Shown here one piece after another: positions 16,714 through 62,258 of a DNA stretch of 64,000 nt. The DNA is from Minisyncoccota bacterium (lineage in GTDB: Bacteria > Patescibacteriota > Minisyncoccia > Phycocordibacterales > Phycocordibacteraceae). The notes under the pieces are model-generated. The model was not told the origin of the DNA. It made no database searches and saw only the letters and a program-made list of their open reading frames with translations. The first letter of the stretch is position 1. Every line of letters begins with the position of its first letter. A program made the position numbers and the translations under genes. The DNA lies in assembly GCA_041666305.1 (NCBI GenBank), contig JBAYHD010000001.1:18149-82148 (forward strand), written 5' to 3'.

Positions 16714-18100
16714 AAATCTTCCGTATCGAGTTTCTTGAAATTTCCCACGTTTCGCCAAATTCGGGGACGATGGCGTTACCGCCGAGGTAGTCGTGGATGC
16801 GCTGGGCGAGGAATCGTTCGGAAGCGGGTTCACCATGGGCGGTGAAAATGACTTTTGTCCTTTTTTCTTTGAGAGCCGCCTCGGCAAATTGCATGAGCTG
16901 ATCGCGGTCGGCATGCGCTGACCATCCTTCGAGTTTTTCTACGGTCGCTTTAATTTTCACATCAGTACCGGCGATACGCACTGAAGAAGCTCTTTCCATC
17001 ATCCGCCGCCCTGGCGTCCCCGGCGCCTGGTAGCCGACCATAAAGAGCGTTGTGGCAGGATCGGGCAGATAGCGCGTCTCCCACCCCCCTATCCTGCCAC
17101 CATGGCTCATCCCTGCTCCGGCGATGATGATTTTCGGCTCCGGCACCTGCTCTATCGCCATCGAATCCTCGCGAGAGAGCGTCTGCTTCAGGAACGGGAA
17201 CTGGAATATGCTTCCTTCCCTTTTCATCTCGTCTTCAGCCTCTGATTTGAAATACGTCATCCCCCACTTCTCATATACGGCGGTGACATGAATGGCGAGT
17301 GGGGAGTCCAAGAAGACCGGTATCCTCGGCAAGTCGCCTGCCTCAAAAAAGTTCGAGAGCTCATGGAGCATGAGCTGAGTGCGCTCCATCGAGAAGGCGG
17401 GAATAAGAATCGTTCCGCCGCGCTTGATAGCACGCTGAAGACTCTCTTTAAGCAGGAGGTTGCGGTCTTCCTTCCCATGCAGTTTGTCGCCATAGGTGCT
17501 TTCCATCACAAGCGCATCGGCGTCCGGCACCGACTCCCAGTCGGGCAGAAGTGGCGAGGGAGAGTTGCCGATGTCGCCAGTGAGCGCGACGCTCGTTCCG
17601 TCTTCGTCTTTAATTCGCACACTCGCCGAACCGAGGATATGGCCCGTGTTACGGAAGTAGGCAGAGAGCCCAGGCGCAACTTCTTTTTCAGTGTGATAGT
17701 CGAGCGTCTCGACGAGCGCAAACGCCGCCTCAACGTCATTACTGTCATAGAGCGGCTGGCGCCCGAGACGCGCTGCTTCTTCGGATAGGATATGCGAAGA
17801 ATCGAGCAGGATAAGCGCCGCGAGGTCGCGCGTCGGCGGTGTCATGAATATCTTTCCCTTAAAGCCGTCTCGCACGAGTTTGGGTATTCTCCCCACGTGG
17901 TCGAGATGTGCGTGCGTGAGCACAAGCGCATCGATATTCTTTACGTCATACGGAAAAGGTCCGTACACCTCTTCCACTGCGAAGTCGTTACCTTGTTCGA
18001 TGCCGCAGTCGACAAGCACCTTACCGCGAGAACCTTCAACTAAAAAATTAGAGCCGGTCACCTTCCCTGCTCCGCCATAAAAACTGAGTTTTAAAGACAT
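16712..18100 (-). CDS. MBL-fold metallo-hydrolase, beta-CASP RNA-metabolising family (RNase J/CPSF-like paralog)
   Basis: 462 aa. LVLTHAHLDHVGRIP (HxHxDH), ...beta-CASP region..., TAHGEP C-terminus. Confidence 0.7.
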   Translation of the reverse strand: MSLKLSFYGGAGKVTGSNFLVEGSRGKVLVDCGIEQGNDFAVEEVYGPFPYDVKNIDALVLTHAHLDHVGRIPKLVRDGFKGKIFMTPPTRDLAALILLDSSHILSEEAARLGRQPLYDSNDVEAAFALVETLDYHTEKEVAPGLSAYFRNTGHILGSASVRIKDEDGTSVALTGDIGNSPSPLLPDWESVPDADALVMESTYGDKLHGKEDRNLLLKESLQRAIKRGGTILIPAFSMERTQLMLHELSNFFEAGDLPRIPVFLDSPLAIHVTAVYEKWGMTYFKSEAEDEMKREGSIFQFPFLKQTLSREDSMAIEQVPEPKIIIAGAGMSHGGRIGGWETRYLPDPATTLFMVGYQAPGTPGRRMMERASSVRIAGTDVKIKATVEKLEGWSAHADRDQLMQFAEAALKEKRTKVIFTAHGEPASERFLAQRIHDYLGGNAIVPEFGETWEISRNSIRKI

Positions 18101-18116
18101 GAGGAGTGGACGAATC

Positions 18117-19181
18117 TCATTTCGCGGTTGACACTAGTTCAATCGTAAATGTTGCGGACTGCCCACCCTTAATTGATGTGTCCCTATCAAGCCAGTATCC
18201 CATGCGAGTTTTAAAAGTGACTTTTCTCACGCCTCCGACCCTCATCCCTATGACTCCTAATCGGTACGAATAAAAGTCGTCGCCCTTAATAGTCTCGAGG
18301 CTTAATATTCCTTGAATGGGACGTGAAGGTGCACTGTCATCAGTCTTCCCGTCTACTGTGGAGCTCAAAATTGTGAATGTGGCATTATCGCCATATTTTG
18401 CTACTGCCCCATCTCCAATTTTCACATCGGAAATATTTCCCATTGGGAAGTAGGGATAGTTTTCATTTCCCGCAGGGAGATTCTGCCCGCTAACCAGATT
18501 AATATTTTGACTCAAGAACATTTCTTGATCGACTTTCTTACTTTCTGCTTCATGGACGATCTTGTCGCTTCTGCAGGCATTTCTGCGAGCGCTGTACAGA
18601 TAGGCATCACATTTATCGATAGACACAAACACGTAATCGTAACTGTTATTGATCCCGAACAAATGATCTCCCGTTAACAAGTCTTGTTTTACCAGTAGAT
18701 CGTTGGAATCTGCATACGCCACGCCAGTAGAGAGGATGAGCAATAACAGCCCCAAAGTCAGCAGCGACCCCCTACCAAGCATCGACAGCTTTTGAGTTAC
18801 TGCATATACTCCTGCCGCAAGAATAAACACTATCGTGATCTCAGTCATCTGTCCCCAAAAGAACATCCCAAGTGTGCCAAAACCAACAGGAATAAAGGTG
18901 AGTATTGCGACCACAGCTAAAATTAAAAGCTCTGTCTTCCAGATTATTTTCAGGAAATCTAGATGGGAGGACATAACGGCCAAAACGAGACACACTAGGA
19001 GGTAAAAGACATAGGCTCCTACTGTTAAGGTCGTGGGAGTAAATCCATCCAGTCCAAGGACTGGAGAAGCGCGATAGTCGAAAAGGAAAAACGAGACAGT
19101 AGAATACAATCCTACAAGACTGAGGGCTCTTATCGCTACCAGTAACAGATTTGCATCTTGAGGATCAGTTTGCGGTTCCAT
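18117..19181 (-). CDS. polytopic membrane protein with C-terminal soluble beta-rich domain (weakly FKBP-like)
   Basis: ~8 TM helices. C-terminus reads RLGVIGMRVGGVRKVTF...ATFTIELVSTAK. ORF-track start 19313 (TTG) would translate through a perfect hairpin, so ATG 19181 is preferred. Confidence 0.4.
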   Translation of the reverse strand: MEPQTDPQDANLLLVAIRALSLVGLYSTVSFFLFDYRASPVLGLDGFTPTTLTVGAYVFYLLVCLVLAVMSSHLDFLKIIWKTELLILAVVAILTFIPVGFGTLGMFFWGQMTEITIVFILAAGVYAVTQKLSMLGRGSLLTLGLLLLILSTGVAYADSNDLLVKQDLLTGDHLFGINNSYDYVFVSIDKCDAYLYSARRNACRSDKIVHEAESKKVDQEMFLSQNINLVSGQNLPAGNENYPYFPMGNISDVKIGDGAVAKYGDNATFTILSSTVDGKTDDSAPSRPIQGILSLETIKGDDFYSYRLGVIGMRVGGVRKVTFKTRMGYWLDRDTSIKGGQSATFTIELVSTAK

Positions 19182-19227
19182 ACCTACAGCGTAGCATGGG
19201 TTTGAACTATTCCTTGCGCTTAGGTAA

Positions 19228-19267
19228 CGCCAATCGCCCTGTTTCCGAAGAAACAGGGCGATTGGCG
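19228..19267. promoter_or_regulatory. perfect 18-bp stem / 4-nt loop hairpin (cgccaatcgccctgtttc-cgaa-gaaacagggcgattggcg) upstream of the membrane-protein gene
   Basis: Read directly. Far longer than typical terminators and no strong U-tract, so possibly a structured RNA element or protein-binding palindrome. Confidence 0.4.
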
Positions 19268-19450
19268 GAGCCGTCCTCTTAAGCAACTTTATCTTGCTAG
19301 GTGGGATGCGCAACGAAAGTTCTCGGATGTCCTTGCGGACTTCACCAAACAGTCTTAATGCAGCGCTCCCGTGAATACAGCAAGTTGCGTTTTTAAGAAC
19401 AGCTCCACTTACAAGTATACACGGGGTGTCAAACGGCGCTGTGGAAAACT

Positions 19451-19481
19451 AAAAAGCCCCGCGTATTGCGGAGCTTTTTCG
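19451..19481 (-). terminator. intrinsic terminator downstream of ndk (minus-strand RNA: aagcuccgc-aauac-gcggggcuu + UUUUU)
   Basis: Stem with one G-U pair followed by a T5 run on the minus strand. Confidence 0.55.
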
Positions 19482-19482
19482 A

Positions 19483-20067
19483 CTATTCGCCGTGGCGCTT
19501 GTAGCTGAATACGCCCTTTTCTCCGAACCAGTGCTTTATCTCGTGCGCGGCCTCTTCCATCGTTTCCGATGCGTGCAAAATATTCGCGACTGCGCGTTTT
19601 TCCGCATTTGCTACTGCCGGCGAATCAACCGAGTAGTCGCCGCGGATGGTGCCCATATCGGCCATGTTTGGAAGCGTCGGACCGCAGATCTTGCGCACCA
19701 TATCTACTGCATGACTGCCTTGAACGACCATTTTTACGAGCGGAGCCGATACCATGTAGTCAACGAGCCATTTCCGTATCTCGGGTCCGATTTTAGCAGC
19801 ATCCGTTGTACCGAAGTCCTCCATAGGGTCATAGCCATACTTTTCATATGTTGAGAGCGTTTTTCCTCCAAGCCGCGTTAGCCAAGCTTCATCCTTCGGA
19901 TAATGATTGTCTATCTCATCGCGAGTTGGCTGGAACATCTCGAGCGCAACTACCTTGAGGTCGCGTTGTTCAAAGCGTTTGATTATCTCGCCGATGAGAC
20001 CCTTCTTCACTCCGTCCGGCTTGATCATCACATACGTTCTTTCCTCTTTCGGATTTTTATTGGCCAT
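19483..20067 (-). CDS. ndk: nucleoside diphosphate kinase (long form, ~194 aa, with insertions)
   Basis: MANKNPKEERTYVMIKPDGVKKGLIGEIIKRFEQRDLKVVALE...NILHASETMEEAAHEIKHWF. The ORF-track N-terminal 83-aa extension has no support. Confidence 0.85.
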   Translation of the reverse strand: MANKNPKEERTYVMIKPDGVKKGLIGEIIKRFEQRDLKVVALEMFQPTRDEIDNHYPKDEAWLTRLGGKTLSTYEKYGYDPMEDFGTTDAAKIGPEIRKWLVDYMVSAPLVKMVVQGSHAVDMVRKICGPTLPNMADMGTIRGDYSVDSPAVANAEKRAVANILHASETMEEAAHEIKHWFGEKGVFSYKRHGE

Positions 20068-25530: not shown

Positions 25531-25935
25531 TTACCAGATCTCGAAGAGGTCCTCGCCGCCGACCCTATTCTTACGCGCCTCGGCATCCGTGATGATGCCG
25601 AGCGATGACGAAAGAATGCGCGCGCCGGTGCCGCCCTTCACTTTGTGTGCGGCAGTGTGCGGCGCGTACAGCCGGCGGCCCGGCTTACTGATGCGCTTCA
25701 CGCCGCGAAGCTTCGCTTCTCCGCGCTCGTTGTAGGCGAGTTCTACGATAATATTTTTCTTCACACTTCCCTCTTCTTTTTCTTTCACTTCAACACGAGA
25801 AACAAAACCCAGCTCGCGAAGTTTCTTCGCGATAGTGAGCAGATGTTCCGAATACGGTAGAGAAACTTCTTTCTTGCCGATCATCGCGGCATTCTGCAAA
25901 CGAATTATGAAATCTCCGACGCGGTCAGTTACCAT
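25531..25935 (-). CDS. rpsH: 30S ribosomal protein S8
   Basis: [24 protein letters not shown]...GGEDLFEIW. Confidence 0.93.
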
Positions 25936-26198
25936 GACGCTTTCTTTACGCCCGGTATCTTCCCCTCGCGTGCGAGCTCGCGGAACTGGATGCGCGAAAG
26001 ACCGAAAGTGCGCATATAACCGCGAGAGCGACCGCTGATGGCACAGCGATTTTTCAGCCGAACAGGAGACGAATTCCTCGGAAGGGCTTGAAGGCCAGCA
26101 GAGTCACCGGCGGCTTTGAGGGCCGCGCGCTTGACTGCATATTTCGCTACGAGTTTCGTCTTTTTGACGAGTCGCGCGAGCTGGGATTTCTTTGCCAT
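25929..26198 (-). CDS. rpsN: 30S ribosomal protein S14 (long, non-zinc type)
   Basis: [32 protein letters not shown]...[42 protein letters not shown] 26198 preferred. Confidence 0.9.
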
Positions 26199-26322
26199 GT
26201 AAAAAATAAAGCCCCGAAGAGCGTGCAAGTAATGTATCACCTAGCTCCTACCCCGTCAAACCGACTGCTTTAGAAAACGGAAATCGCTCGGGTGGAGCAG
26301 TTTCCGCCGAGCGACTTGCTTT

Positions 26323-26637
26323 TTAGCCATCTAGGTTTGACATGCACGCAGCCCAGCTCGCCTGTCGCCGAGCAGGTTCGCCCAGTTCGAGAACTTCGCT
26401 ACCTATCGTGGTTTCGTATTCGTAGCCAGCGAGCTGTTCAAGTTCAAGGAGTGGGATGACCTCCTCGTTGATCGCCTTCAAGATCTCTGCAGGAATGGGC
26501 TTCCCTACTCCCTGAAAAATTACTGTCTCTTTCCCGCAACTGATCGTGCGATGCATTGTTACAGTCATGGTTTCAAGCTCAGTCGAGATGCCATTCTGTT
26601 TCAGAATGGCAAAGAACTTTCGATTGCTTCCCAACAT
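26323..26637 (-). CDS. hypothetical protein (first gene of the rpsN-rplE insertion)
   Basis: 104 aa. Good SD (aaggagga) 7 nt upstream of the ATG. No recognisable motif. Confidence 0.4.
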   Translation of the reverse strand: MLGSNRKFFAILKQNGISTELETMTVTMHRTISCGKETVIFQGVGKPIPAEILKAINEEVIPLLELEQLAGYEYETTIGSEVLELGEPARRQASWAACMSNLDG

Positions 26638-26735
26638 GATTTCCTCCTTTTCAGGAAAAATATTGATACCGATTCACCATTGAATCCGAACCCAACCAAT
26701 AGTAGACCGATAGGCGAAAAAAGTAAAATTACCAT

Positions 26736-26774
26736 TATCCCCATTTTGACCCGGTCGGGTCATTATTGGGATAC
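26736..26774. repeat. 39-bp imperfect-palindromic element, copy 1 (TATCCCCATTTTGACCCGGTCGGGTCATTATTGGGATAC); perfect 16-bp inner palindrome TGACCCGGTCGGGTCA
   Basis: 100% identical to 27379..27417. Flanks the wHTH/PaaX-like gene. Confidence 0.9.
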
Positions 26775-26795
26775 GTGGTTTAGTATGATTAAGCG

Positions 26796-27377
26796 ATGGG
26801 GACAGTTGAAGTGGGGGCAAAAATAAAAAGAAGAAAGAGAGATCTGCGGAGTGCAGCGCTCATCACCATCGGTTTGGCCGGGACTATCGCCGTCGCCGCC
26901 GTTGCACCAAACATGTTCCAGCTCCTCGGAAAGACCGGTCTACTTACCCGTCTTAAGTATCGCAGTAAGGGAGTACTCGCTCGATTGAAGTACAAAGGCG
27001 AGATCGAATTTGTAGAAAAGAACGGGAAGAAATATGTACGACTAACCGACAAGGGTGAAAAAATGTTGGATCTCAATCGCGAGAAATTAAATCTAACGAA
27101 CAAGAAACCGAAAAGGTGGGATCGCCGATACCGGCTGGTCATGTTCGATATACCGGAGAAACGGAACAACATCCGCAAGCTCTTACGTTTTGAGATGCGG
27201 GAGATCGGTTTCTTGCGTATACAGGACAGCGTCTGGGTCTACCCTTTTGATTGCGAAGAGTTCATCACACTCCTTAAGGCGGACTTGCGGGTTGGTAAGG
27301 ATATTCTCTACGCAGTTGTAGAAGAAATAGAAAACGACAAGTGGATCCGCAAACACTTTAATCTACCCCTTAAATAA
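26796..27377 (+). CDS. PaaX-like winged-helix regulator family protein with Cas2-like beta-alpha-beta-beta motif (paralog 1)
   Basis: 193 aa. N-terminal hydrophobic helix, wHTH-like KYKGEIEFVEKNGKKYVRLTDKGEKML, then RWDRRYRLVMFDIPEKRNNIRKLLRFEMREIGFLRIQDSVWVYPFDCE. This pattern matches PaaX (WDGxWxLVxF...R..LRxxLxxxGFgxLQxSVWV) and the Cas2 YDV...KRR...G.RVQNSVF signature. Convergent with the r-protein genes. Confidence 0.55.
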   Translation: MGTVEVGAKIKRRKRDLRSAALITIGLAGTIAVAAVAPNMFQLLGKTGLLTRLKYRSKGVLARLKYKGEIEFVEKNGKKYVRLTDKGEKMLDLNREKLNLTNKKPKRWDRRYRLVMFDIPEKRNNIRKLLRFEMREIGFLRIQDSVWVYPFDCEEFITLLKADLRVGKDILYAVVEEIENDKWIRKHFNLPLK

Positions 27378-27378
27378 C

Positions 27379-27417
27379 TATCCCCATTTTGACCCGGTCG
27401 GGTCATTATTGGGATAC
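27379..27417. repeat. 39-bp palindromic element, copy 2 (identical to 26736..26774); similarity continues ~15 bp beyond (GTGGTTT(A)GTAT)
   Basis: Direct comparison. Confidence 0.9.
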
Positions 27418-27442
27418 ATTAGTGGTTTGTATTAAAATAAAA

Positions 27443-27991
27443 CTACTTTTTCGGAGCTTCGACGATAAGAGGGAGACCCAAGTGACGGAAGAAAGCCTCG
27501 GCCTCGGCCTTCGATTTTGCGGTCGTAACCACGGTCATAGCGAGCCCGAACACGTCCTTCAGGTCCTCGTCGGAAGTTTCCGGAAAGATGGTGTGTTCCT
27601 TGATGCCGATGGTGATATTGCCCATGTCATCAATGGCTTTTGCTGAGAGGCCGCGGAAGTCACGAGTGCGCGGGAGAGCGATGTGGATGAGTTTGTCGAG
27701 GAAGTCATACATCCGGGCGCCGCGGAGCGTCACCTGGAGCCCAACGGTATCGCCTTCGCGCACCTTGAAGGATGCGATGGATTGTTTCGCGGCGCGCGGT
27801 GCCGGTTTCTGCCCAGTGATCTTTCCAAGACGATTCTCAATAAGTTCGATCTGCTTCTTGTCGCGCTTCTTGCCGACGCCGGTGGAGACAACGACTTTCA
27901 TAATGCGCGGGCCCTGCATCGGGCTCGTGTAGCCGAAATCCTTCGCGAGGGCGAGGTAGGCGGTCTGTTGGCGTTCTTTGGTAATAGACAT
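27443..27991 (-). CDS. rplE: 50S ribosomal protein L5
   Basis: MSITKERQQTAYLALAKDFGYTSPMQGPRIMKVVVSTGVG...DFRGLS. ATG 27991 preferred. Confidence 0.92.
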   Translation of the reverse strand: MSITKERQQTAYLALAKDFGYTSPMQGPRIMKVVVSTGVGKKRDKKQIELIENRLGKITGQKPAPRAAKQSIASFKVREGDTVGLQVTLRGARMYDFLDKLIHIALPRTRDFRGLSAKAIDDMGNITIGIKEHTIFPETSDEDLKDVFGLAMTVVTTAKSKAEAEAFFRHLGLPLIVEAPKK

Positions 27992-28001
27992 AATTGCAAT
28001 A

Positions 28002-28295
28002 TTATTTTGCGCCTGCGGCTGGCTTAGCAGTCTTCTTCGCCTTTTTAACCGGCGCATCGAGTGCCGACTGTATCTTCACCGCTTCAACGCGAGCGACATT
28101 TGATGCATCAATGGCGCGCGGACGCTCCGCGATGCTGCCGACCTTCCCTTGGCCGCCCTTCAGGTGGCGCTTGTAGAGCGCAACGCCTTCGATGACGACT
28201 TTATTCTCGCGCGGTAGTGCGCGCAGAATGACGCCGGACTTACCTTTGTCCTTGCCTGCGATGACTTTCACTTTGTCTCCTTTTTTTACGTGCAT
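28002..28295 (-). CDS. rplX: 50S ribosomal protein L24
   Basis: MHVKKGDKVKVIAGKDKGKSGVILRALPRENKVVIEGVALYKRH (KOW motif). ATG 28295 preferred. Confidence 0.9.
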   Translation of the reverse strand: MHVKKGDKVKVIAGKDKGKSGVILRALPRENKVVIEGVALYKRHLKGGQGKVGSIAERPRAIDASNVARVEAVKIQSALDAPVKKAKKTAKPAAGAK

Positions 28296-33624: not shown

Positions 33625-34239
33625 TTATGCGGAGACTACTTCAAGCAATGTGCCGCGGCGACCCGGAACGGCGCCGCTGACGATGATCTTTCCCTCTTTC
33701 GCATCGACCACGAGCACCTTGAGGTTCGTCACCGTGACGCGATCAGAACCCATGCGACCGGCCATGCGGATGCCCTTTGCGACACGACCGCCCGCGCGAC
33801 CACCCGAACCGCCGATAGAGCCCGGAGAGCGCTCGGTGTGCTTCTGGCCGTGAGAACGCGGGCCGCCGTGGAAGCCATGGCGCTTCACCACGCCGGCGAA
33901 GCCCTTGCCTTTCGTGATGCCGGAAACTTGCACGACGTCGCCGACCGCAAAAATTGATGCATCGATCGTATCGCCAACGGCGGCAGCGTTGTCAGTGCGG
34001 AATTCGCGAATTGCTTCGTAGCCCTTGCCTTTCGTGTGTCCGAGGACTGGCTTAGAAATATTCTTCGTGCGGCGTTCGCCCTGGCCGACCTGAACCGCCG
34101 AATATTTATCCTTGCCGTCCGCCATCTTCACTTGCGTGACGGTAATCGGCTCGGCCAAGAGAACAGTCCCCGCATGCGCAAGGCCATCCGCCGTAAAGAT
34201 ACGGGTCATTTTTTCTTTCTTAGCGAGGATGAATTTCAT
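33625..34239 (-). CDS. rplC: 50S ribosomal protein L3
   Basis: MKFILAKKEKMTRIFTADG...GFAGVVKRHGFHGGPRSHGQKHTERSPGSIG. ATG 34239 preferred. Confidence 0.93.
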   Translation of the reverse strand: MKFILAKKEKMTRIFTADGLAHAGTVLLAEPITVTQVKMADGKDKYSAVQVGQGERRTKNISKPVLGHTKGKGYEAIREFRTDNAAAVGDTIDASIFAVGDVVQVSGITKGKGFAGVVKRHGFHGGPRSHGQKHTERSPGSIGGSGGRAGGRVAKGIRMAGRMGSDRVTVTNLKVLVVDAKEGKIIVSGAVPGRRGTLLEVVSA

Positions 34240-34367
34240 TGTGTATGCAAATCGCGCCACAGCAATCGCTGGGCGCGATTTGCTGGAGGTCCCGCGGGGG
34301 ACATAGCGATTTGAGCACTCTACACGAGCCTCTTAAAAGATGCAAATCACTATGCTAGGCTTACGTA

Positions 34368-34592
34368 ATGGAAGATGGCCCGGAAAACAGAGCCCTCAGA
34401 AGCAAAAATGCGATTGATTTAGAAATTATGGGCTTGAGAATCAAGCTACAGCAACTCGAAACCAAAACCGCAATTGGGGGGTCTACTGAAATAAAAGCTT
34501 TGATTGAATCTGCAGGCAAAGACCAAGAGGTTCAAAGAATAGAAACGAAAATAGAGGAATTACGGCAGGAAAAGTCATCCTCAAAAGCGTAA
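34368..34592 (+). CDS. small coiled-coil hypothetical protein (rplC-rpsJ insertion)
   Basis: 74 aa, heptad-like LEIMGLRIKLQQLETK...IETKIEELRQEK. No SD, so weak call. Confidence 0.3.
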   Translation: MEDGPENRALRSKNAIDLEIMGLRIKLQQLETKTAIGGSTEIKALIESAGKDQEVQRIETKIEELRQEKSSSKA

Positions 34593-34642
34593 GGTCGCGA
34601 GGTGTGGCTCGCGACCCGTAATTCTGTTGATATGGTGCGGTG

Positions 34643-34987
34643 CTACAAGTAGCCTTGCTGATGGCAGTGGACTGCGGCAGTGCTGTAAAGCGTCTGAAAA
34701 AACTGGGTGTACCACTCGTTCCCAAATCGCTTGGCAACGCGGAGGCCGTGCCGAGTACGCCGCCGAACAATCTTCCAGTCCTCAGGTGTAACACGAGTGC
34801 GCTCCGTAAAGCCGTTAACCTGCTCGTGCAATTCGCGCAGACGTAATTCCACCCGAGCCTCGATAGGAACAGTTCTCTCGGCTTGGCGCATGATCCACGC
34901 CATCTCCTGCGGACCAACCCGCCCCGTACATCCTGGTTTGCGCAGTGGCTTAATGCCAAGCGCCGCTAGATCCAAGTTTTTGCTCAT
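34643..34987 (-). CDS. hypothetical protein (rplC-rpsJ insertion)
   Basis: 114 aa from ATG 34987 (MSKNLDLAALGIKPLRKPGCTGRVGPQEMAWIMRQAERTVPIEARVELRLRELHEQ...). SD aggag 7 nt upstream. Confidence 0.45.
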   Translation of the reverse strand: MSKNLDLAALGIKPLRKPGCTGRVGPQEMAWIMRQAERTVPIEARVELRLRELHEQVNGFTERTRVTPEDWKIVRRRTRHGLRVAKRFGNEWYTQFFQTLYSTAAVHCHQQGYL

Positions 34988-35032
34988 TTCATACTCCTCG
35001 TTATGTAACCAGGCAGAGTAAAGCACATTCTC

Positions 35033-35072
35033 AAAAACACACAACCGCCTCTGCGGGCGGTTGTGTGTTTCT
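35033..35072 (-). terminator. intrinsic terminator, hairpin family ACACACAACCGCC-loop-GGCGGTTGTGTGT (minus strand followed by UUUUUGA); downstream of PaaX-like paralog 2
   Basis: Perfect 13-bp stem. A near-identical copy is at 36117..36156. Confidence 0.65.
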
Positions 35073-35088
35073 TGCTAATTACCATCGT

Positions 35089-35126
35089 GTTCGTTAATTC
35101 TAACGACCGTTGGAGATAACGAACAT
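35089..35126. repeat. 38-bp palindromic element GTTCGTTAATTCTAACGACCGTTGGAGATAACGAACAT (termini GTTCGTTA/TAACGAAC), copy A, 3'-flank of paralog 2
   Basis: Shares conserved termini and centre (28/38 identity) with copy B at 35745..35782. Confidence 0.75.
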
Positions 35127-35129
35127 TGG

Positions 35130-35744
35130 TTACTCTACTAGCGGGAGATTAAAATGCTTGCGGAGTTTTTCGTCGTGTTCTATCTCATCAGCGACTATAC
35201 AGAGAATACCGTGACCAAGTTTTAGATGCGTGCGCAAAAAGACAAGGAGTTTTTCACACGGATATGGATATGCCCATGCACTGTTCTGTACCTTAACGAA
35301 GCCGATTTCTCTGAGCGTCTCTCGTAATTCGTCACGCACTTCCCGTCGCCGCTCCCACACATCAAACATGATAATCCGCCACTTCTGATCCCATTTCTTC
35401 TGATTTTTAGGCCGCACTTCTTCGCGCTCTGCAAGTTCTTCGGCAATCTTCATCCCCTTCTCTGTTAGCTCTATATGAAAGCCGTTTTGCCCCTTCACTC
35501 GCCGAAATATACCCTGTTTAATCAGCTCAGAATATTTTTGACTCACGCGCCTCTTAAGACGAGGCGAAGGCCCAATGACTTTCTCTACATATTTGAGTAG
35601 TCTCACTGCGTTCGGCGCCATAACTATCAGACCTACTCCAATCGTGAGATACGCCGAGAGCAAAACAGCATTTTTAATTTTGGTGCGCTTTGTCCCGCGC
35701 TGAACCCTCTCCTCAATATTCAAGAGCCGTTTCTTTTTCTCCAT
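35130..35744 (-). CDS. PaaX-like wHTH regulator family protein with Cas2-like motif (paralog 2)
   Basis: 204 aa. GQNGFHIELTEKGMKIAEEL (wHTH wing), KKWDQKWRIIMFDVWERRREVRDELRETLREIGFVKVQNSAWAYPYPCE, C-terminal ...DEKLRKHFNLPL shared with paralog 1. Clearly homologous to 26796..27377. Confidence 0.55.
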   Translation of the reverse strand: MEKKKRLLNIEERVQRGTKRTKIKNAVLLSAYLTIGVGLIVMAPNAVRLLKYVEKVIGPSPRLKRRVSQKYSELIKQGIFRRVKGQNGFHIELTEKGMKIAEELAEREEVRPKNQKKWDQKWRIIMFDVWERRREVRDELRETLREIGFVKVQNSAWAYPYPCEKLLVFLRTHLKLGHGILCIVADEIEHDEKLRKHFNLPLVE

Positions 35745-35782
35745 GTTCGTTATTGTACACGGTCGTTGGACTTAACGAACAT
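35745..35782. repeat. 38-bp palindromic element copy B (GTTCGTTATTGTACACGGTCGTTGGACTTAACGAACAT), abutting the start codon of paralog 2
   Basis: Direct comparison with 35089..35126. Confidence 0.75.
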
Positions 35783-35890
35783 AGGATGTGTACAAATATG
35801 GGAGCGGAGCGTGGCCTCCTCTGCCCTACCCCGCCCAAAGATGCAAGAAAACAACCGGGGTCGCGAGTGATTTGCTCGCAACCCCGTATT

Positions 35891-36082
35891 TCAGCTGCAT
35901 CCGTGCGGCGAAGGCCGACCAATCGGATGTTTCTCGATTTCATCACCCATTTCTGCCCAGTAACAATCGGCATGCACCGCAACCTTTTGACCTTCGACGA
36001 CAATGTACTCCAACTCCCCTTCAATATGTGGTCCGTCGATTAAATCATGACATATGCCGCAATAAACCGAACTTAGATCCAT
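35891..36082 (-). CDS. small Cys/His-rich (zinc-ribbon-like) hypothetical protein
   Basis: 63 aa from ATG 36082: MDLSSVYCGICHDLIDGPHIEGELEYIVVEGQKVAVHADCYWAEM. SD aaggaggg upstream. Confidence 0.45.
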   Translation of the reverse strand: MDLSSVYCGICHDLIDGPHIEGELEYIVVEGQKVAVHADCYWAEMGDEIEKHPIGRPSPHGCS

Positions 36083-36116
36083 GATTAAGCCCTCCTTTCT
36101 GCAGGCGAGTCTAGCA

Positions 36117-36156
36117 TAAAACACACAACCGCCCGTGAGGGCGGTTGTGTGTTTCT
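36117..36156 (-). terminator. second copy of the ACACACAACCGCCC-gtga-GGGCGGTTGTGTGT hairpin terminator, ~140 nt downstream of rpsJ
   Basis: Near-identical to 35033..35072, including flanking TTCTTG(G/C). Confidence 0.65.
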
Positions 36157-36299
36157 TGGCTGTCTTTGGAATTCTAGCGGTTTCAAAACTACTGTAGATG
36201 CTAGGCGCGACGAGAGAATTTCTGGAGACGTACTCAAATGTACGGCGGAAGAAGTTCTCGAAGTCGCAACAACGCAGATGCAGTAGTTTTGGAAGCGCG

Positions 36300-36704
36300 C
36301 TACACCATTTTCACATCTATCGTCACTCCTGACGGAAGGTTGAGGTTCGTGAGGGCCTCGATGACCTTCGGCGAGGGGTTCATGATGTCGATGAGGCGCT
36401 TATGAATGCGCATCTCGAACTGTTCGCGTGCGTCTTTATGGACGAAGGTCGAACGGTTCACGGTCCAGCGCTTTATCTCGGTGGGAAGCGGAACCGGGCC
36501 CACGACGATCGCATCAAAGCGAGCGGCGGTGTCCATGATCTGCTTCACCGAGAGGTCCAATATCTTGTGCTCATAGGCACGGACGCGGATGCGGAGCTTG
36601 TGCTCCACCGGAGCCGACGCTACAGCTTTCTTCGCTGCGGCTTTCGCCCGCGGCGCTTTGGGCGCCGCGACTTTCTTTGCTTTAGGTTTCGCCGCTGTTG
36701 CCAT
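36300..36704 (-). CDS. rpsJ: 30S ribosomal protein S10 (with ~30-aa Ala/Lys-rich N-terminal extension)
   Basis: KLRIRVRAYEHKILDLSVKQIMDTAARFDAIVVGPVPLPTEIKRWTVNRSTFVHKDAREQFEMRIHKRLIDI. Confidence 0.92.
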   Translation of the reverse strand: MATAAKPKAKKVAAPKAPRAKAAAKKAVASAPVEHKLRIRVRAYEHKILDLSVKQIMDTAARFDAIVVGPVPLPTEIKRWTVNRSTFVHKDAREQFEMRIHKRLIDIMNPSPKVIEALTNLNLPSGVTIDVKMV

Positions 36705-36723: not shown

Positions 36724-37923
<1,200 letters not shown>

Positions 37924-37966: not shown

Positions 37967-38009
37967 CCTGCCCCGTAGCCAAGCATTCCGATGCTTGTGG
38001 TACTGGGGT
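37967..38009. repeat. imperfect long hairpin element CCTGCCCCGTAGCCAAGCATTCCGATGCTTGTGGTACTGGGGT in the tuf 5' region; second copy (with a 72-bp internal insertion) at 61621..61738
   Basis: Direct sequence comparison. Contains AAGCAT-TCCG-ATGCTT inner hairpin. Confidence 0.6.
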
Positions 38010-38496: not shown

Positions 38497-38565
38497 GCAC
38501 AACAGCCGCCCTCCGGGCGGCTGTTGTGCCGAAAGTTAGGACACCCGGTGTCCTAACTTTTTACT
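38497..38565. terminator. two tandem perfect hairpins (gcacaacagccgccc-tcc-gggcggctgttgtgc; aagttaggacac-ccgg-gtgtcctaactt+tttt)
   Basis: Inverted repeats read directly. The second has a + strand T-tract. Confidence 0.45.
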
Positions 38566-38602
38566 TGCGAGATGCGATGATGTCGGCGGCAACGTTGTTC
38601 GG

Positions 38603-38750
38603 TGGTGTGCAACACCAGGTGTTGAACAAAATTATTTGCGGGATGCGATGATGTCGGCCGCGACGTTGGTGGGGACCACGTCGTAGTGATTGAACTCCAT
38701 CGTCATACTGCCGCGGCCTTCGGTCATGGAGCGAAGCGTGGTGGCGTAGA
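38603..38750 (-). repeat. degenerate duplicate (~80% identity) of the fusA 3' end plus its terminator hairpin (original 39200..39350); includes an in-frame remnant of the last ~39 codons and stop; an additional nested partial copy at 38567..38602
   Basis: Direct alignment: ...gtgtgcaacaccaggtgttgaacaaaattatttgcggg(a/a)(t/g)gcgatgatgtc... occurs at both loci. Confidence 0.8.
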
Positions 38751-38785
38751 AAGTCCGCTTTCTTGACGTGATATTATAAAGTTCA

Positions 38786-39145
38786 ATGAATATCCTCATC
38801 GCAGTTCTCGGACTGTTTGCAATCGATTACTATGGGTTGCGTTCATATTTGAGTCAGCGTGGCAAACCTACGGAAGGTTTAACAAAAAATATCTTACTAG
38901 CCTATAAAGACACCGCCGCCTGCGGGATTGCAGTTTTGCTTATCTCACTACCATTCTTCCTCGTTGATACTGGTGCCCCACGACCCTATGCCGAGCTGCT
39001 TTCGATGGCTCTTTGGGGTGCGGGATTCGTCCTACCTCTACCCTTCTTCATAAAAAAGAGAGTTAATATTCCTTGGTTGACTGCGATTGGTTTTATCTTT
39101 GGTCCATTGGTTTTTATTTTGCCTGCACTGTACGCAACCTTTTAA
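38786..39145 (+). CDS. small 3-4-TM membrane protein (hypothetical), convergent cargo between fusA and its duplicated 3' end
   Basis: 119 aa. [26 protein letters not shown]...[37 protein letters not shown]. Confidence 0.45.
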
Positions 39146-39229
39146 ACAACTGCAGCAAACTCAAACGGAAAGCGGCCGCCCTCTCGGGTGGCCGTTGTAC
39201 TGGTGTGCAACACCAGGTGTTGAACAAAA

Positions 39230-41377
39230 TTATTTGCGGGAGGCGATGATGTCCGCGGCCACATTAGTAGGAACTACATCGTAGTGGTCAAACTCCATCG
39301 TCATCGAGCCGCGGCCTTCGGTCATGGAGCGGAGAGTGGTGGTGTAGCCGAACATTTCGGAAAGCGGAACTTTCGCCTTCACGACTTTGTTGAGACCTCG
39401 TTCTTCCATTCCCTCGATTTGTCCGCGTTTGCCGGAGAGATTACCCGTGATGTCGCCCATGAATTGGTCCGGAATAATGACTTCCACTCGCATAATCGGC
39501 TCAAGGATGACGGCCTTTGCTTTGCTTGCCGCTTCTTGAAATGCCATGGATGCCGCGATTTTGAAAGCGATTTCTGAGGAGTCCACATCGTGGTATGAGC
39601 CGTCGTAAAGGTCGACTGAGATATCCACCATCGGGAAGCCGGCGAGGAAGCCTCGCGCCATGGCCTCGCGGAGACCTTTCTCGATTGGCGAGATGAATTC
39701 CTGAGGAATGACGCCGCCTTTGATGTTATTGATGAATTCGAAATGGTCTTCGCGCGTAATATTTTTCGCGACCTTCTTCTCCGAATCTACCGGTTCCATC
39801 TTCTTCATCTTGATCTTCACATGACCGTACTGGCCGCGGCCGCCGGTCTGCTTGATGTACTTCCCTTCCGCTTCCGAAGAACCCATAATCGTTTCGCGAT
39901 ATGCCACCTGCGGCTTTCCCACATCCGCAACGACGTTGAACTCGCGCTTCATGCGGTCCACGAGGATTTCGAGGTGCAATTCGCCCATGCCGGAAATAAT
40001 CGTTTCATTCGTCTCTTCGTCGGTCTTGATGCGGAACGTCGGGTCTTCGTCGGAAAGTTTGCGGAGCGCAATGCCCATTTTCTCCTGGTCGGCTTTGGTC
40101 TTGGGCTCGATGCGGAGCGACACCACCGGTTCAGGGAATTTAATTTCCTCGAGCACGATAGGATTTGCCTCATCACAGAGCGTGTGCGAAGTTTTCGTAT
40201 CTTTGAGACCCACTGCGGCCGCGATTTCTCCGGTAAACACCTGTGCGACTTCTTCGCGCTTGTCGGCTTGCAAGCGAACGATGCGGCCGACGCGTTCCTT
40301 GGAACCCGTCGTTGAGTTGTATACATACGAGCCGGCGGTGAGTGTGCCTGAATACACACGGAAGAAAGTCAGCGCGCCGACAAACGGATCGGTCTGGAGT
40401 TTGAATGCCATCGCGCAAAACGGTTCATCATCTGACGCATGACGCTCAACCGGTTCATTCGTCTTCGGGTTTATGCCGGTGACGGGCTTGAGGTCCAAGG
40501 GCGACGGGAGATAATCCACGACCGCATCAAGTACGAGCTGTGCGCCTTTATTCTTAAGGGCAGAACCGGTGTACACCGGGAACACTTCGTTCGCGATGAC
40601 CGCCTTGCGCAAAATCGCCTTCAACTCATCGATGTTCGGCTCTTTGCCTTCGAGATACGCACCCATCGCCGCATCGTCTTGCTCCACAATGCGCTCAATG
40701 AGTTCGGCGCGGTACTTCTTCGCGTCTTCAAGGAGATTCGCGGGAATCTCGCCCTCTACCACCTCTTCGCCCATGTTGCCGGTAAAGGTGTATGCCTTCA
40801 TCGTGAGCAGATCCACGCAACCTTCATGCTGTGCCTCTTCTCCGATAGGAATTTGCATGCGAATGGCCTTCGGCGAGAGCCGGTCCAAAATGCTTGCATA
40901 GGAACGCTCAAATGACGCTCCTATGCGATCCAATTTATTGATGAAGCAAACACGCGGCACCGCGGCTTCGTCGGCATAACGCCAGTTTGTTTCGGACTGC
41001 GGTTCCACGCCGGCCACGCCGTCAAAGACGACAACCGCACCGTCGAGCACGCGCATGGAGCGCTTCACTTCTGCCGTGAAGTCGATGTGTCCGGGGGTGT
41101 CGATGATATTGAAACGATATTTCTTGGAGATATCCTTCTTGTCTTTCTCAATCGTTTTTGTCCAGAAGCAGGTAATGGCGGCGGCGGTGATGGTGATGCC
41201 GCGCTCGCGCTCTTGTTCCATCCAGTCGGTGGTCGTTTCTCCTTCGTGCACTTCACCGATCTTGTGTTGGGAACCTGTATAGAAAAGGATGCGCTCGCTG
41301 ACAGTGGTCTTGCCGGCGTCAATGTGCGCAATGATGCCGAAGTTCCTGACCTTCTCGAGTGGATAGTCTCTGTTCAT
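39230..41377 (-). CDS. fusA: elongation factor G
   Basis: 715 aa. NFGIIAHIDAGKTTVSERILFYTG... Confidence 0.97.
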   Translation of the reverse strand: MNRDYPLEKVRNFGIIAHIDAGKTTVSERILFYTGSQHKIGEVHEGETTTDWMEQERERGITITAAAITCFWTKTIEKDKKDISKKYRFNIIDTPGHIDFTAEVKRSMRVLDGAVVVFDGVAGVEPQSETNWRYADEAAVPRVCFINKLDRIGASFERSYASILDRLSPKAIRMQIPIGEEAQHEGCVDLLTMKAYTFTGNMGEEVVEGEIPANLLEDAKKYRAELIERIVEQDDAAMGAYLEGKEPNIDELKAILRKAVIANEVFPVYTGSALKNKGAQLVLDAVVDYLPSPLDLKPVTGINPKTNEPVERHASDDEPFCAMAFKLQTDPFVGALTFFRVYSGTLTAGSYVYNSTTGSKERVGRIVRLQADKREEVAQVFTGEIAAAVGLKDTKTSHTLCDEANPIVLEEIKFPEPVVSLRIEPKTKADQEKMGIALRKLSDEDPTFRIKTDEETNETIISGMGELHLEILVDRMKREFNVVADVGKPQVAYRETIMGSSEAEGKYIKQTGGRGQYGHVKIKMKKMEPVDSEKKVAKNITREDHFEFINNIKGGVIPQEFISPIEKGLREAMARGFLAGFPMVDISVDLYDGSYHDVDSSEIAFKIAASMAFQEAASKAKAVILEPIMRVEVIIPDQFMGDITGNLSGKRGQIEGMEERGLNKVVKAKVPLSEMFGYTTTLRSMTEGRGSMTMEFDHYDVVPTNVAADIIASRK

Positions 41378-51069: not shown

Positions 51070-52994
51070 GCTTCAATAACAAATTCACCATCGGTCTCGT
51101 CGTAGAGCATTAGTGAGCCGTCGATATCGGCGAGAAATGACGATGGCTCCGATGCGAAATCGTTGCCGTATATCTTACGGACGCGCGCGAGCGTGAGAAA
51201 AAGCCGATTTTTTGCGCGCGTCATCGCCACATAAAAAAGACGTCGTTCTTCTTCCTCGTCGCGGTCGGTCTCATTCCCCATGCCCTGGTGCGGGAATAGT
51301 CCTTCTTCCATGCCGGTCACAAAAACCGTATCGAATTCAAGACCCTTTGCCGCGTGCACGGTCATGAGCGTCACTCCTCGCTTTTCTCCTTGATCCATCT
51401 CGTCCTGGTCGCTCGCAAGCGCCGCCTCGGCGAGGAATGTCGCAATGCCCTCCTTCCCCGGCATGGCATCATGCCGCGCGGCAACTGACGCAAGCTCTTC
51501 CACATTTTCAAATCGTTCGCGGTCCTCCGCACTTCCTTCGTCGAAAAGCGCGCGACGCATGCCACTCTTCTCGACGACGAGTCGCACGAACTCCGAAGGC
51601 ATGAGTGCTTCTGCTGCGCGCGAAAGTTCATCGATAATCGCTTCAAATGCTTCCACTTTCACGAGTTCACCGGCGCGAAGCGCGGCGCGTTGCCCTGCGG
51701 CGAGTTTGCCGAGCGTCACTTTTCCGATGCCGCGCGACGGATTTGCCGCCGCGCGGAGCTTATCCACCTCGCGCGAAGAGTCCATCGCGAGACGCATCCA
51801 CGCGAGAGCGTCCTTCACTTCTTTCCGCGCAAAGAATTTCGTACCGATGAGTTTGTACGGCACGCCCGCACGGAGGAGCCCTTCTTCAAGCGCACGTGAT
51901 TGGAAATTGGTGCGGAAAAGTATTGCGACTTCTTCCGGCTTTTCTCCATTCCTCATTAATTCGCGTATTTTGAGCGCCACCCAGCGCGCTTCGTCCTCCG
52001 CACTCCGCGCCATGTGCACGACGATAGGAGCGCCGGCTAGTTTTTCGGTCGTAGAATATTTTTCTTTACGATTTTTATTTTTCTCAATGACGGCATTTGC
52101 GGCGTCCACCAGATTTTTCGTCGCCCGATAGTTCTGAGAAAGGATGATCGTCTGCGCCTCCGGATACGTTTTGTCGAATTCGAGCAGATTCTCTATCGTC
52201 GCCCCGCGCCACGTATAAATAGTCTGATCGATGTCGCCGACGACGAAGAGATTCCGATGTTTTGCGGCAAGCATATTCGCAAGGCGCCCCTGAAGTGCGT
52301 TGGTGTCCTGATATTCGTCGATGTGAATGTACTTCCAGCGGTCTTGCGCGAGCGCGCGGACGTCTTCGTGCTCTTCCAGGAGCTTCACCGGGAGCGCAAT
52401 GAGGTCGTCGAAATCCAAAGACTTCTCTTCTTTCAATGTTTTTTCATAGCGGAGCCATGCTTCGGCGGCAATGCGGTTGCCGAAACCGGACCGGCCGTGC
52501 TTTTCATAAAATTCATGCGCTTGCATGCCTTCCCCTTTCGCTCGTGAGATGCGACCGAGGATTGCGCGCGGGGAAAACTCCTTTGCGCCGACATCGAGCG
52601 CCTTCAGTGCCGCGCCAATCGCTTTTTCGGAGTCGTCGCGGTCATACACACTGAAGAAACGCTGAATGCCGATCGCCTTCCCGTAGCTTTCAAGCAGTTC
52701 TCGACCGAGTCCGTGGAATGTGGCGATGAACGGGAGCCCCGAGGGGGCCCCTTCGGGGCGGCCGTCCTCGCCCAGCTGCCTCCGCACCCGCTCGCGCATC
52801 TCGCGGGCAGCTTTATTGGTGAAGGTGACGGCGAGTATCTCGCCCGCGGGCACGCCCGAGCGGACCAAATGAGAGATGCGCGTCGTGAGGACACGCGTTT
52901 TCCCGCTTCCGGCACCGGCCAAAACTGAAATCGGGCCGTCGGTAGCGAGCACCGCCTTTTTTTGGGCGTCATTCAATCCTTCGAGGTATTTCAC
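51066..52994 (-). CDS. UvrD/PcrA/Rep-family ATP-dependent DNA helicase
   Basis: 642 aa. AGAGSGKTRVLTTRISHLV (motif I)...GTKFFARKEVKDALAWMRLA...VHAAKGLEFDTVFV (motif VI). Carries a GC-palindrome insertion at 52737..52758 (GRPEGAPSGLP). Confidence 0.9.
   Translation of the reverse strand: MKYLEGLNDAQKKAVLATDGPISVLAGAGSGKTRVLTTRISHLVRSGVPAGEILAVTFTNKAAREMRERVRRQLGEDGRPEGAPSGLPFIATFHGLGRELLESYGKAIGIQRFFSVYDRDDSEKAIGAALKALDVGAKEFSPRAILGRISRAKGEGMQAHEFYEKHGRSGFGNRIAAEAWLRYEKTLKEEKSLDFDDLIALPVKLLEEHEDVRALAQDRWKYIHIDEYQDTNALQGRLANMLAAKHRNLFVVGDIDQTIYTWRGATIENLLEFDKTYPEAQTIILSQNYRATKNLVDAANAVIEKNKNRKEKYSTTEKLAGAPIVVHMARSAEDEARWVALKIRELMRNGEKPEEVAILFRTNFQSRALEEGLLRAGVPYKLIGTKFFARKEVKDALAWMRLAMDSSREVDKLRAAANPSRGIGKVTLGKLAAGQRAALRAGELVKVEAFEAIIDELSRAAEALMPSEFVRLVVEKSGMRRALFDEGSAEDRERFENVEELASVAARHDAMPGKEGIATFLAEAALASDQDEMDQGEKRGVTLMTVHAAKGLEFDTVFVTGMEEGLFPHQGMGNETDRDEEEERRLFYVAMTRAKNRLFLTLARVRKIYGNDFASEPSSFLADIDGSLMLYDETDGEFVIEA
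52737..52758. repeat. GC-rich palindromic element copy (CCCCGAGGGGGCCCCTTCGGGG) embedded in-frame in the helicase gene
   Basis: Same motif as 53079..53102 and 60880..60901. Confidence 0.7.
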
Positions 52995-54301: not shown

Positions 54302-54310
54302 CTTCTCATA

Positions 54311-62237: not shown

Positions 62238-62258
62238 AAGGCGACCGCGGTCGCCTTT

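Follow-up and report, generated by a model that had tools for sequence, protein, structure and literature searches.

Truncated PaaX relatives with Cas2 motifs and cognate flanking palindromes, a candidate family of autorepressors in Patescibacteria

Two paralogous genes, A and B, are found in a 64,000-nucleotide stretch of a Minisyncoccota bacterium genome (contig JBAYHD010000001.1; the whole stretch is referred to as the window). Judged from sequence and predicted structure, their products are truncated relatives of the repressor PaaX that retain Cas2 motifs, and are neither PaaX orthologs nor Cas2; we refer to them as mini-PaaX. Each gene lies between two copies of a palindromic site of its own of about 38 bp, and on balance we incline to the view that mini-PaaX proteins are dimeric, sequence-specific autorepressors with small regulons, and not CRISPR (short palindromic repeats, clustered and regularly interspaced) or defence nucleases. 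The genes and their sites are located as follows, with protein lengths in amino acids (aa).

35130–35744, minus strand: paralog B, 204 aa; basic N-terminal tail and hydrophobic helix, winged helix at about 43–110, Cas2-like PaaX_M domain at about 116–197
35744–35781: upstream 38-bp site of B, TGTTCGTTA-N6-ACGRYCGT-N6-TAACGAACA, overlapping the start codon (35742–35744)
35088–35125: 38-bp site downstream of B, beginning 5 nt past the stop codon and carrying the central dinucleotide of the upstream copy in inverted form
26796–27377, plus strand: paralog A, 193 aa; architecture as in B; antisense to the ribosomal operon, between rplE and rpsN
26736–26774: 39-nt site upstream of A, TATCCCCATTTTGACCCGGTCGGGTCATTATTGGGATAC, centred 41 nt ahead of the ATG
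27379–27417: downstream 39-nt site of A, identical to the upstream copy and starting 2 nt after the stop codon

A is the sole paralog of B in the window, with 36% identity over 180 residues (tblastn, E=2e-35). The shared blocks quoted in a first-pass annotation of this stretch are all present in both proteins upon alignment, namely (H/Y)-hydrophobic-(E/R)-LT-x-KG, (K/R)WDxx(W/Y)R(I/L)(I/V)MFD(V/I)xE and REIGF...Q.S.W, and both proteins end about 10 residues past the Cas2-like domain with (L/I)RKHFNLPL, of which RKHF.L is nearly invariant in an alignment of 52 family sequences. Ten residues are invariant in that alignment (P44, T94, G97, W118, D119, R123, D128, R137, Q153 and S155, in B numbering), and these include the aspartate of the FDI motif, D128, whose conservation the annotation had singled out for checking. 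The N-terminal hydrophobic helix that it described is also borne out, with a Kyte-Doolittle value (19-residue window) of at least 1.6 in 88 of 97 family members.

Both proteins match the central Cas2-like domain of PaaX (Pfam PF20803) with E values of 1.5e-18 and 2.2e-15 (67.1 and 57.0 bits against a cut-off of 24). Matches to Cas2 itself are below cut-off for PF09827 (17.9 and 18.2 bits against 23.8) and just short of it for TIGR01573 of NCBIfam (23.5 and 22.3 bits against 24.5), and those to the NCBIfam PaaX model TIGR02277 are far below (34.3 and 32.2 bits against 264.55). Winged-helix Pfam matches are weak and sub-cut-off, and PF07848, the N-terminal PaaX winged helix, is not among the Pfam matches at E≤1; the predicted winged helix-turn-helix (wHTH) superposes on PaaX. 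An AlphaFold (AF2) model of B built from the 52-sequence alignment has a mean predicted local distance difference test (pLDDT) score of 79.7, rising above 90 in the C-terminal domain. Its N-terminal half has a long low-confidence helix (pLDDT 55–59), helices at 43–57 and 63–76, a beta-hairpin wing at 80–93 and a helix at 95–110, and the C-terminal domain has beta1 at 122–127, alpha1 at 131–147, beta2-beta3 at 150–159, alpha2 at 164–173 and beta4 at 180–185. The modelled fold is thus a winged helix followed by the beta1-alpha1-beta2-beta3-alpha2-beta4 ferredoxin fold that had been predicted, with the aspartate ending beta1 as in Cas2. In a Foldseek comparison with the PDB, which the first-pass annotation had suggested, E. 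coli PaaX (8a39) is the best match (E=1e-5), with two PaaX-like structures (3l09 and 3kfw), F-93 (a viral wHTH protein) and structures of Cas2 after it, so that the matches are not to unrelated families. The wHTH is of the MarR/PadR/PaaX kind. A sequence search of the PDB with the family gives marginal matches only; over beta1-alpha1-beta2, the C-terminal-domain profile can be aligned with SSO8090, a Cas2 of Sulfolobus, at E=0.019 ("iiifDipek..r.eL...lkevgf.klQdSvw" against "LVVYDVSDDS--KRNKLANNLKKLGLERIQRSAF").

The relationship to PaaX is evident from the alignment of the E. coli K-12 paaX product with the family (hhalign E=2.6e-4 over residues 66–162), in which PaaX reads AWDGKWLLLLSEGLDK opposite KWDQKWRIIMFDVWER of B. 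The two have the same domain order, a winged helix and then a Cas2-like central domain, and the WD..W, GF and S..P motifs in common, S155 and P160 both being kept. The statement in the first-pass annotation that E. coli PaaX lacks the acidic pair proved wrong: the K-12 protein has SEGLD opposite the family FDVWE, with E for D128 and D for E131. Its claim of Cas2-likeness therefore needs dividing, since the Cas2-type FD(I/V) and Q.S, along with several arginines, are kept in the family and lost in PaaX, but PaaX too has acidic residues at the aligned positions. Similarly, the fusion of a wHTH to a Cas2-like domain is real in that both domains are present, but it is not new, because this is PaaX's own architecture, already contained in the Pfam domain name, here without the C-terminal domain. 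PaaX (PF07848, PF20803 and PF08223) is 316 aa in length and includes PaaX_C (PF08223), whereas the family proteins are about 200 aa and lack it; the last ~110 residues of K-12 PaaX have no counterpart in the family alignment. The TM-like (transmembrane-like) N-terminal helix is a further difference from PaaX; in the PaaX alignment it takes the place of the first wHTH helix, and it may be buried in the dimer and not in a membrane. PaaX, which represses the paa operons of E. coli, is a characterised repressor, and phenylacetyl-CoA relieves its binding to DNA (PMC4498308). The palindrome TGATTC-N27-GAATCA, a candidate PaaX operator of E. coli, does not occur in the 10 kb surrounding K-12 paaX and carries no weight here. 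The family also differs from PaaX in its restriction to Patescibacteria, in the several paralogs that one genome carries, every one of them with its own bracketing site, and in its setting: in the window and in annotated neighbourhoods there are no paa genes near A or B or their relatives, the neighbours being ribosomal protein, tRNA synthetase and transporter genes.

The palindrome-flanked cassettes noted in the first-pass annotation are confirmed, with two cognate copies around each gene; both B sites have the form TGTTCGTTA-N20-TAACGAACA over 38 nt. The arrangement is a general one. At 77 Patescibacteria loci from a genome scan, we compared 150 nt on either side of the gene, upstream of the ATG and downstream of the stop codon. 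The two stretches share a repeat scoring at least 15 at 64 loci and in none of 135 controls, for which one partner had been moved 700 nt away (median score 22.5 versus 8; Fisher p=1e-41). A scan with a generic site description gives 276 sites in the 1.29 Mb of sequence fetched and 4 in shuffled sequence, and in the window it finds exactly four, two per gene. Alignment of the sites on their centres separates lineage-specific outer arms of 8–10 nt (~9 bp) from a core that is constant family-wide, position −3 being a C in 98% of sites and position +3 a G in 100% (e.g. CGA|CCG, CTA|TAG and CGG|CCG). Similarity of the arms rises with similarity of the proteins between loci (Spearman 0.29–0.43).

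The symmetry of the sites does not extend to the spacers. Among 51 unique B-type copies with a true core from the metagenome scan, Watson-Crick pairing at the six spacer positions on each side is not above that expected from column composition (e.g. 18 versus 19.4 expected, and 9 versus 17.6), and the central dinucleotide is asymmetric, AC/GT, in 47 of the 51, so that symmetry is confined to the arms and the 3+3 core. Because there is no spacer covariation and only arms and core are symmetric, this is the signature of a two-fold symmetric protein acting on duplex DNA, and we have dropped a hairpin function, whether of RNA or of single-stranded DNA. Nor do the two flanking copies evolve in concert, spacer identity being 0.68 within units and 0.70 between them.

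The upstream and downstream copies differ in a manner suggestive of promoters. In 97 non-redundant units, with 62 upstream and 75 downstream copies, 26 of the 62 upstream copies have their centre exactly 18 nt from the ATG, and a second cluster at 37–43 nt includes A. The motif TAnnnT occurs in the gene-proximal half of 40/62 upstream copies and in the distal half of 12/62 (p<1e-6), compared with 17/75 downstream copies and 15/75 of their mirror halves (p<1e-6 versus the upstream gene-proximal halves). In the upstream site of B a −10-like TACAAT is present at 35752–35757, 7 nt before the A of the ATG (35744). We also note clear sigma-70-like promoters elsewhere, in the window (35819–35846 and 26231–26259) and at other loci (L112, L115, L125 and L143), of the form TTGCAT/TTGACR-N17-TATAAT/TAnAnT and lying 8–10 nt before a start codon; short or absent leaders may be common in these Patescibacteria.

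Sites are not limited to the flanks of family genes. Sixty-two B-type sites with a true core were located in metagenome contigs, of which 24 flank a family gene, 16 are too near the end of the locus to be classed, and 22 are orphans, defined by more than 700 nt of sequence on both sides with no family gene; another 28 pattern matches lack the core and are the chance matches to be expected of an 18-base pattern. Orphans are found repeatedly at orthologous positions, where arms and core have been preserved and the spacers have changed. At three loci an orphan site is situated between a terminator hairpin and the dnaJ promoter (TTGCAT-N17-TATAAT), which lies 8–10 nt before the dnaJ start, and at others a B-type and an A-type-like site are side by side upstream of the TTGACA-N17-TAAATT promoter of a 92-aa open reading frame (ORF) adjoining rpoB. 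Because its sites also lie upstream of the dnaJ promoter and of this rpoB-adjacent ORF, the B-type protein is probably a trans-acting regulator of a small housekeeping regulon. Copy number is low, at about four true orphans in the 570 kb of loci that were fetched via the gene and not the site, and there are none in the window. Orphans of two specificities can also be found 36–81 nt apart within one intergenic region (L141 3953/4034, L153 44/80, L185 6537/6583 and L194 4065/4111), with the same pair of site types in L185 and L194, as if two paralogous proteins act jointly.

From these observations we infer dimerization, direct binding, repression and a controlling signal. The Cas2-like domain would make the protein a dimer, as in PaaX and Cas2, and the dimer would bind double-stranded DNA at the two-fold symmetric ~38-bp site. 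In line with the invariance of the Cas2-like domain and the core and the variability of the winged helix and the arms, the dimer would be centred on the core, with a conserved part of the protein reading it, and the wHTH domains would reach out to arms about 29 bp apart, where the variable winged helices would read the variable 9-bp arms. Since the upstream copy holds the −10 element and the start codon, its occupancy would shut the protein's own gene off. This would be negative autoregulation, and the mRNA would probably be leaderless or nearly so. The downstream copy, which lacks promoter features, would most simply be a second operator that strengthens repression by looping, or else an insulator shielding the gene from its highly transcribed ribosomal-protein neighbours. 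Each protein would act in addition at a handful of further sites, such as the dnaJ promoter and the small ORF near rpoB.

Several observations weigh against such an autorepressor. A classical autoregulator needs no downstream copy, and about five independent orphans lie between convergent genes, 7–44 nt from stop codons, where no promoter is expected. The invariant Asp128, Glu131, Gln153 and Ser155 exceed the needs of a dimerization module, the TM-like N-terminal helix is unexpected in a soluble repressor (albeit modelled at the low pLDDT given above), and neither a ligand-binding domain nor a signal is evident in A or B. A simple scan for the sigma-70 consensus calls no complete promoter at either upstream site, and the promoter claim for these sites therefore rests on the centre-aligned family profile. 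Within a stratum of equal overall divergence there is no helix-specific covariation of recognition helix and arms; we see a general phylogenetic correlation only, and helix-arm covariation has been dropped as a direct proof of binding. The autorepressor reading does not account for the downstream copy, the convergent-gene sites, the acidic and polar residues that are invariant in the Cas2-like domain, or the TM-like helix, and it is because of these four loose ends that a nuclease or cassette and an architectural role stay alive as alternatives.

The genomic setting of the two cassettes bears on all of these readings, and its principal features, other than the genes and sites themselves, are as follows.

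36300–36704, minus strand: rpsJ (S10), directly upstream of the B cassette
36118–36158: terminator-like hairpin hp1, copy 1, after rpsJ, AAACACACAACCGCCC..GGGCGGTTGTGTGTTT
35891–36082, minus strand: small 63-aa CxxC...HxxC ORF between hp1 and the B unit; no Pfam match
35856–35886: terminator-like hairpin after the 63-aa CxxC ORF
35819–35846, minus strand: promoter-like motif TTGCATCTTTGGGCGGGGTAGGGCAGAG upstream of B, TTGCAT-N17-TAGRGN
35034–35074: hp1 copy 2, just downstream of the B unit
about 34318–34345: rplC-proximal relative of the B promoter-like motif
33625–34260, minus strand: rplC (L3), downstream of the B cassette
27443–28057: rplE, flanking the A insertion, A being on the opposite strand
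26323–26637, minus strand: ORF of 104 aa, function unassigned, within the rplE-rpsN insertion
26231–26259, minus strand: promoter-like TTGACG-N17-TACATT, directed at rpsN from the right end of the insertion between rplE and rpsN
25929–26240: rpsN, flanking the A insertion on its other side, A being on the opposite strand

B is on the same strand as rpsJ and rplC, between them, and its orthologs of at least 64% identity with visible flanks (~30 loci, 64–88%) are also found between these two genes, the exception being a locus pair just before tuf. The order of the region is rpsJ, hairpin, promoter, site, B, site, hairpin, promoter, rplC: the two hp1 copies are 93% identical and bracket the small CxxC ORF together with the B unit, and the TTGCAT-N17-TAGRGN motif occurs twice in most orthologous B loci, once before B and once ~65 nt before rplC. 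This duplicated layout would let the inserted B be expressed and shut off without breaking the operon. Homologs of the 63-aa CxxC ORF adjoin some B orthologs, and in L107 one lies between two B-type sites. Orthologs of A at 72–75% identity (L040 and L058) are likewise between rplE and rpsN, and A-like paralogs at 63–70% identity adjoin prolyl-tRNA synthetase, ABC transporter or type IV secretion system pilin genes. The rplE-rpsN insertion of ~1.2 kb is absent from L215, the closest contig, with ribosomal proteins 91–99% identical, and from L150 and L187. A promoter-like GTTTGACGG..GATACATT precedes rpsN in 4/4 insertion-bearing loci and in 0/3 empty ones, and there is no convincing target-site duplication at the insertion. 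The gene A stretch of the window is present in identical form in a 56.9-kb contig of JGI sample 3300037810. The neighbouring ORFs of 63, 133, 74 and 104 aa have no Pfam matches.

One alternative is that mini-PaaX is an architectural protein, whose sites are transcription roadblocks, insulators or chromosome anchors, possibly membrane-tethered via the N-terminal helix and with no promoter-specific regulation. The sites directly after stop codons and between convergent genes suit this, as do the lack of promoter features in downstream copies, the position of the units, between terminators and re-start promoters, inside ribosomal operons that are transcribed at very high levels, the conservation of the TM-like helix and the clustering of orphan sites of different types. 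However, the asymmetry of the upstream copy is specific and promoter-like, its distance to the ATG is fixed, orphans occur upstream of the dnaJ and rpoB-proximal promoters, copy number is low, and the basic N-terminal tail before the hydrophobic helix predicts an N-in topology that would place the DNA-binding domains outside the cell; we consider this role rather unlikely. A site-specific nuclease or mobile cassette, in which an active Cas2-like domain nicks or cuts the core, the site-gene-site arrangement can excise or transpose as a selfish unit and orphan sites represent solo ends or targets, is in our estimation unlikely as well. The invariant aspartate at the Cas2 catalytic position and the other Cas2 motifs speak for it, and the 3+2+3 core with its variable, often asymmetric central dinucleotide resembles recombination or cleavage sites; the A unit is present or absent among close relatives, there are several paralogs per genome and variable small ORFs beside the units, L107 has a site-ORF-site-gene-site array, in L170 two sites of the same type lie 465 nt apart with a duplication of the smc tail, and hp1 and the promoter motif occur in duplicate on either side of the B unit. 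Yet paralogs within one genome are only 30–40% identical and each have a different site, as copies of an active element would not, B orthologs are kept at one locus down to 64% identity, no target-site duplication is visible at the A insertion, and the common right-end promoter of the insertion-bearing loci suggests a single old event; moreover, E. coli PaaX, a repressor, is also acidic at the aligned positions, the only relative on a viral contig is truncated, and the two copies show no concerted evolution. The bolder form of this proposal, that the Cas2-like domain is an active site-specific nuclease or strand-transferase on the core of its own flanking 38-bp sites, and site-gene-site an unrecognised minimal self-mobilising or self-excising cassette of Patescibacteria, is a long shot; if true, there would be a Cas2-fold enzyme acting on palindromic repeats without Cas1, with a bearing on the origin of the CRISPR adaptation machinery.

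Some Cas2 and VapD proteins are RNases, and the palindromes could in principle be RNA hairpins at both ends of the mRNA, bound or processed by a Cas2/VapD-like RNase domain. The sites do bracket the transcript, some copies are perfect 42-nt palindromes, and the PDB title of 3exc reads 'RNA'se SSO8090'; but spacer pairing at or below expectation gives no compensatory covariation, the 3+2+3 palindromic core is too tight for a stable loop, the arms of the A site hold a C.T mismatch and not a wobble pair, the upstream copy overlaps the likely transcription start and so would fall mostly outside the RNA, and the other domain is a wHTH of the MarR/PadR/PaaX kind, all of which makes an RNA-level role highly unlikely. 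The proposal that the proteins are genuine CRISPR-associated Cas2, as the NCBI and JGI names have it, or genuine PaaX regulators of phenylacetate catabolism, draws on those names and on TIGR01573 scores barely under the cut-off, and has next to no likelihood. Cas2 is a stand-alone protein of about 90–100 aa, half the size of the family proteins, and carries no wHTH; the family, unlike Cas2 and VapD, has gene-flanking 38-bp palindromes as its associated DNA elements and scores under the curated cut-offs, and neither cas1 nor an array occurs in the window or in seven annotated neighbourhoods, the neighbourhoods having no Cas1 Pfam match and the window no regularly spaced repeat family. A phenylacetate regulator is opposed by a TIGR02277 score of 34 bits against 264, the absence of PaaX_C and the lack of paa genes nearby. 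A CRISPR role can thus be set aside, and among the options that the first-pass annotation had left open (regulator, nuclease, mobile or defence component) it is the regulator that we favour, whereas defence is unsupported: PADLOC returns weak Cas2 matches (1e-5) and noise-level LmuC and PD-T4-7 matches only, and the genomic context is housekeeping. Two other known systems invite comparison. REP/RAYT elements (repetitive extragenic palindromes with their associated tyrosine transposases) also have a gene flanked by cognate palindromes, several paralog-palindrome pairs per genome and intergenic dispersal of the palindrome, but the family lacks an HUH/Y1 transposase domain (Pfam, NCBIfam and fold searches give wHTH, PaaX_M and Cas2 only, and no IS200/IS605-like HUH-Y1 domain), and its sites are low-copy, without hairpin covariation, with the upstream copy built into the promoter; REP/RAYT-like dispersed repeats were dropped as an explanation on account of the low copy number, the missing HUH domain and the orphans with conserved arms and core and diverged spacers. 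Autoregulated winged-helix dimers of the MarR, PadR and DtxR kinds and the archaeal-virus proteins F-93 and AspA differ in that their operators are usually 16–25 bp, their dimer interface is helical and not Cas2-like, and they are not known for a second copy past the stop codon.

We note some further features of the window and of related loci. The ribosomal-operon gaps (34261–36299 and 26241–27442 in the window, and those of L001, L003, L005, L040, L107 and L146) hold different small ORFs in each genome, including the 63-aa CxxC protein, ORFs of 133, 104, 234, 243, 58 and 45 aa, Gp49/HTH and RelE-like toxin-antitoxin pairs and a hexapeptide-repeat protein. The inserted pieces are typically bracketed by a duplicated terminator or promoter, and in L146 a toxin-antitoxin cassette sits between two copies of the dnaJ promoter. 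G+C content falls to 0.47–0.50, from a background of ~0.55, at 18001–20000, 54001–56000 and 62001–64000, with the same drop at the A and B cassettes, and these low-G+C stretches may be further insertions. The 3′ end of fusA (39230–41377) is repeated within 38561–39347, between fusA and tuf (36724–37923): the 147 nt at 38603–38749 are 87% identical to 39201–39347, a 42-nt tail is present in three copies (38561, 38632 and 39230), and the repeats bracket an ORF on the plus strand (38786–39145) for a 119-aa membrane protein. This looks like an insertion into the gene end that carried or duplicated the gene's tail, and the same tail-repeat pattern is present at the end of smc in L170. A 35-nt sequence, GTAGCCAAGCATTCCGATGCTTGTGGTACTGGGGT, occurs twice, at 37975–38009, just upstream of tuf, and at 61704–61738, the copies being 23.7 kb apart and 94% identical, and a GC-rich perfect palindrome, GCCCCGAAGGGGCCCCTTCGGGGC, has three copies (52736–52759, 53079–53102 and 60879–60902). 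No tRNA genes are predicted anywhere in the window.

The family is widespread in Patescibacteria. A word-indexed protein search gives 125 relatives of B and 339 of A, every named one being from Patescibacteria, and a genome scan gives at least 504 confirmed relatives, all of them, among the matches listed, in Patescibacteria metagenome-assembled genomes; the groups listed are Kaiser-, Adler-, Nomura-, Yonath-, Staskawicz-, Moran- and Doudnabacteria and the Paceibacterota, and several of the assemblies have 2–3 loci each. An exhaustive profile search of 1.84 billion representative sequences, with clustering at 50% identity, yields 817 clusters when E is limited to 1e-30 or less and 3381 when the limit is 1e-10. 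Among 2.9 million viral contigs there is a single truncated relative, and a phage origin was therefore dropped; this protein (L095 3992–4360, IMGVR_UViG_3300031949_000100) is 122 aa in length, consists of the wing and Cas2-like domain only and adjoins an HNH-like ORF. The names given to the relatives in their source databases range from "hypothetical" through "PaaX" to "CRISPR-associated endonuclease Cas2", and the last of these looks wrong. Seven records (P0099, P0122, P0146, P0167, P0182, P0201 and P0231) are named Cas2 by NCBI or JGI despite the wHTH, with no cas1 or array in the contexts examined, and such mislabelling, which public annotation pipelines (NCBI often) apply to many members, would inflate CRISPR counts in surveys of these phyla.

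In the literature searched we found no paper linking PaaX or Cas2-like domains with Patescibacteria, and for this reason five features appear to be undescribed: a truncated form of the protein that retains Cas2 motifs, the expansion of this form in Patescibacteria, the cognate sites that bracket the genes, the promoter-like element inside the site and the fixed position in the S10 operon. Because the Cas2 sequence motifs lost by PaaX are kept, the family is the clearest intermediate between Cas2-like proteins and PaaX-type regulators. Each protein has a predicted operator adjoining its gene, and the family thereby offers a catalogue of protein/DNA-site pairs that could be tested in vitro for organisms that are uncultivated, and that could serve as orthogonal repressor/operator parts. 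Patescibacteria have very few recognisable transcription factors, and with at least 817 clusters at 50% identity and several paralogs per genome, this may be one of their main regulator families. The B clade, fixed in the S10 operon and with sites at dnaJ and near rpoB, hints at lineage-specific control of growth and stress genes.

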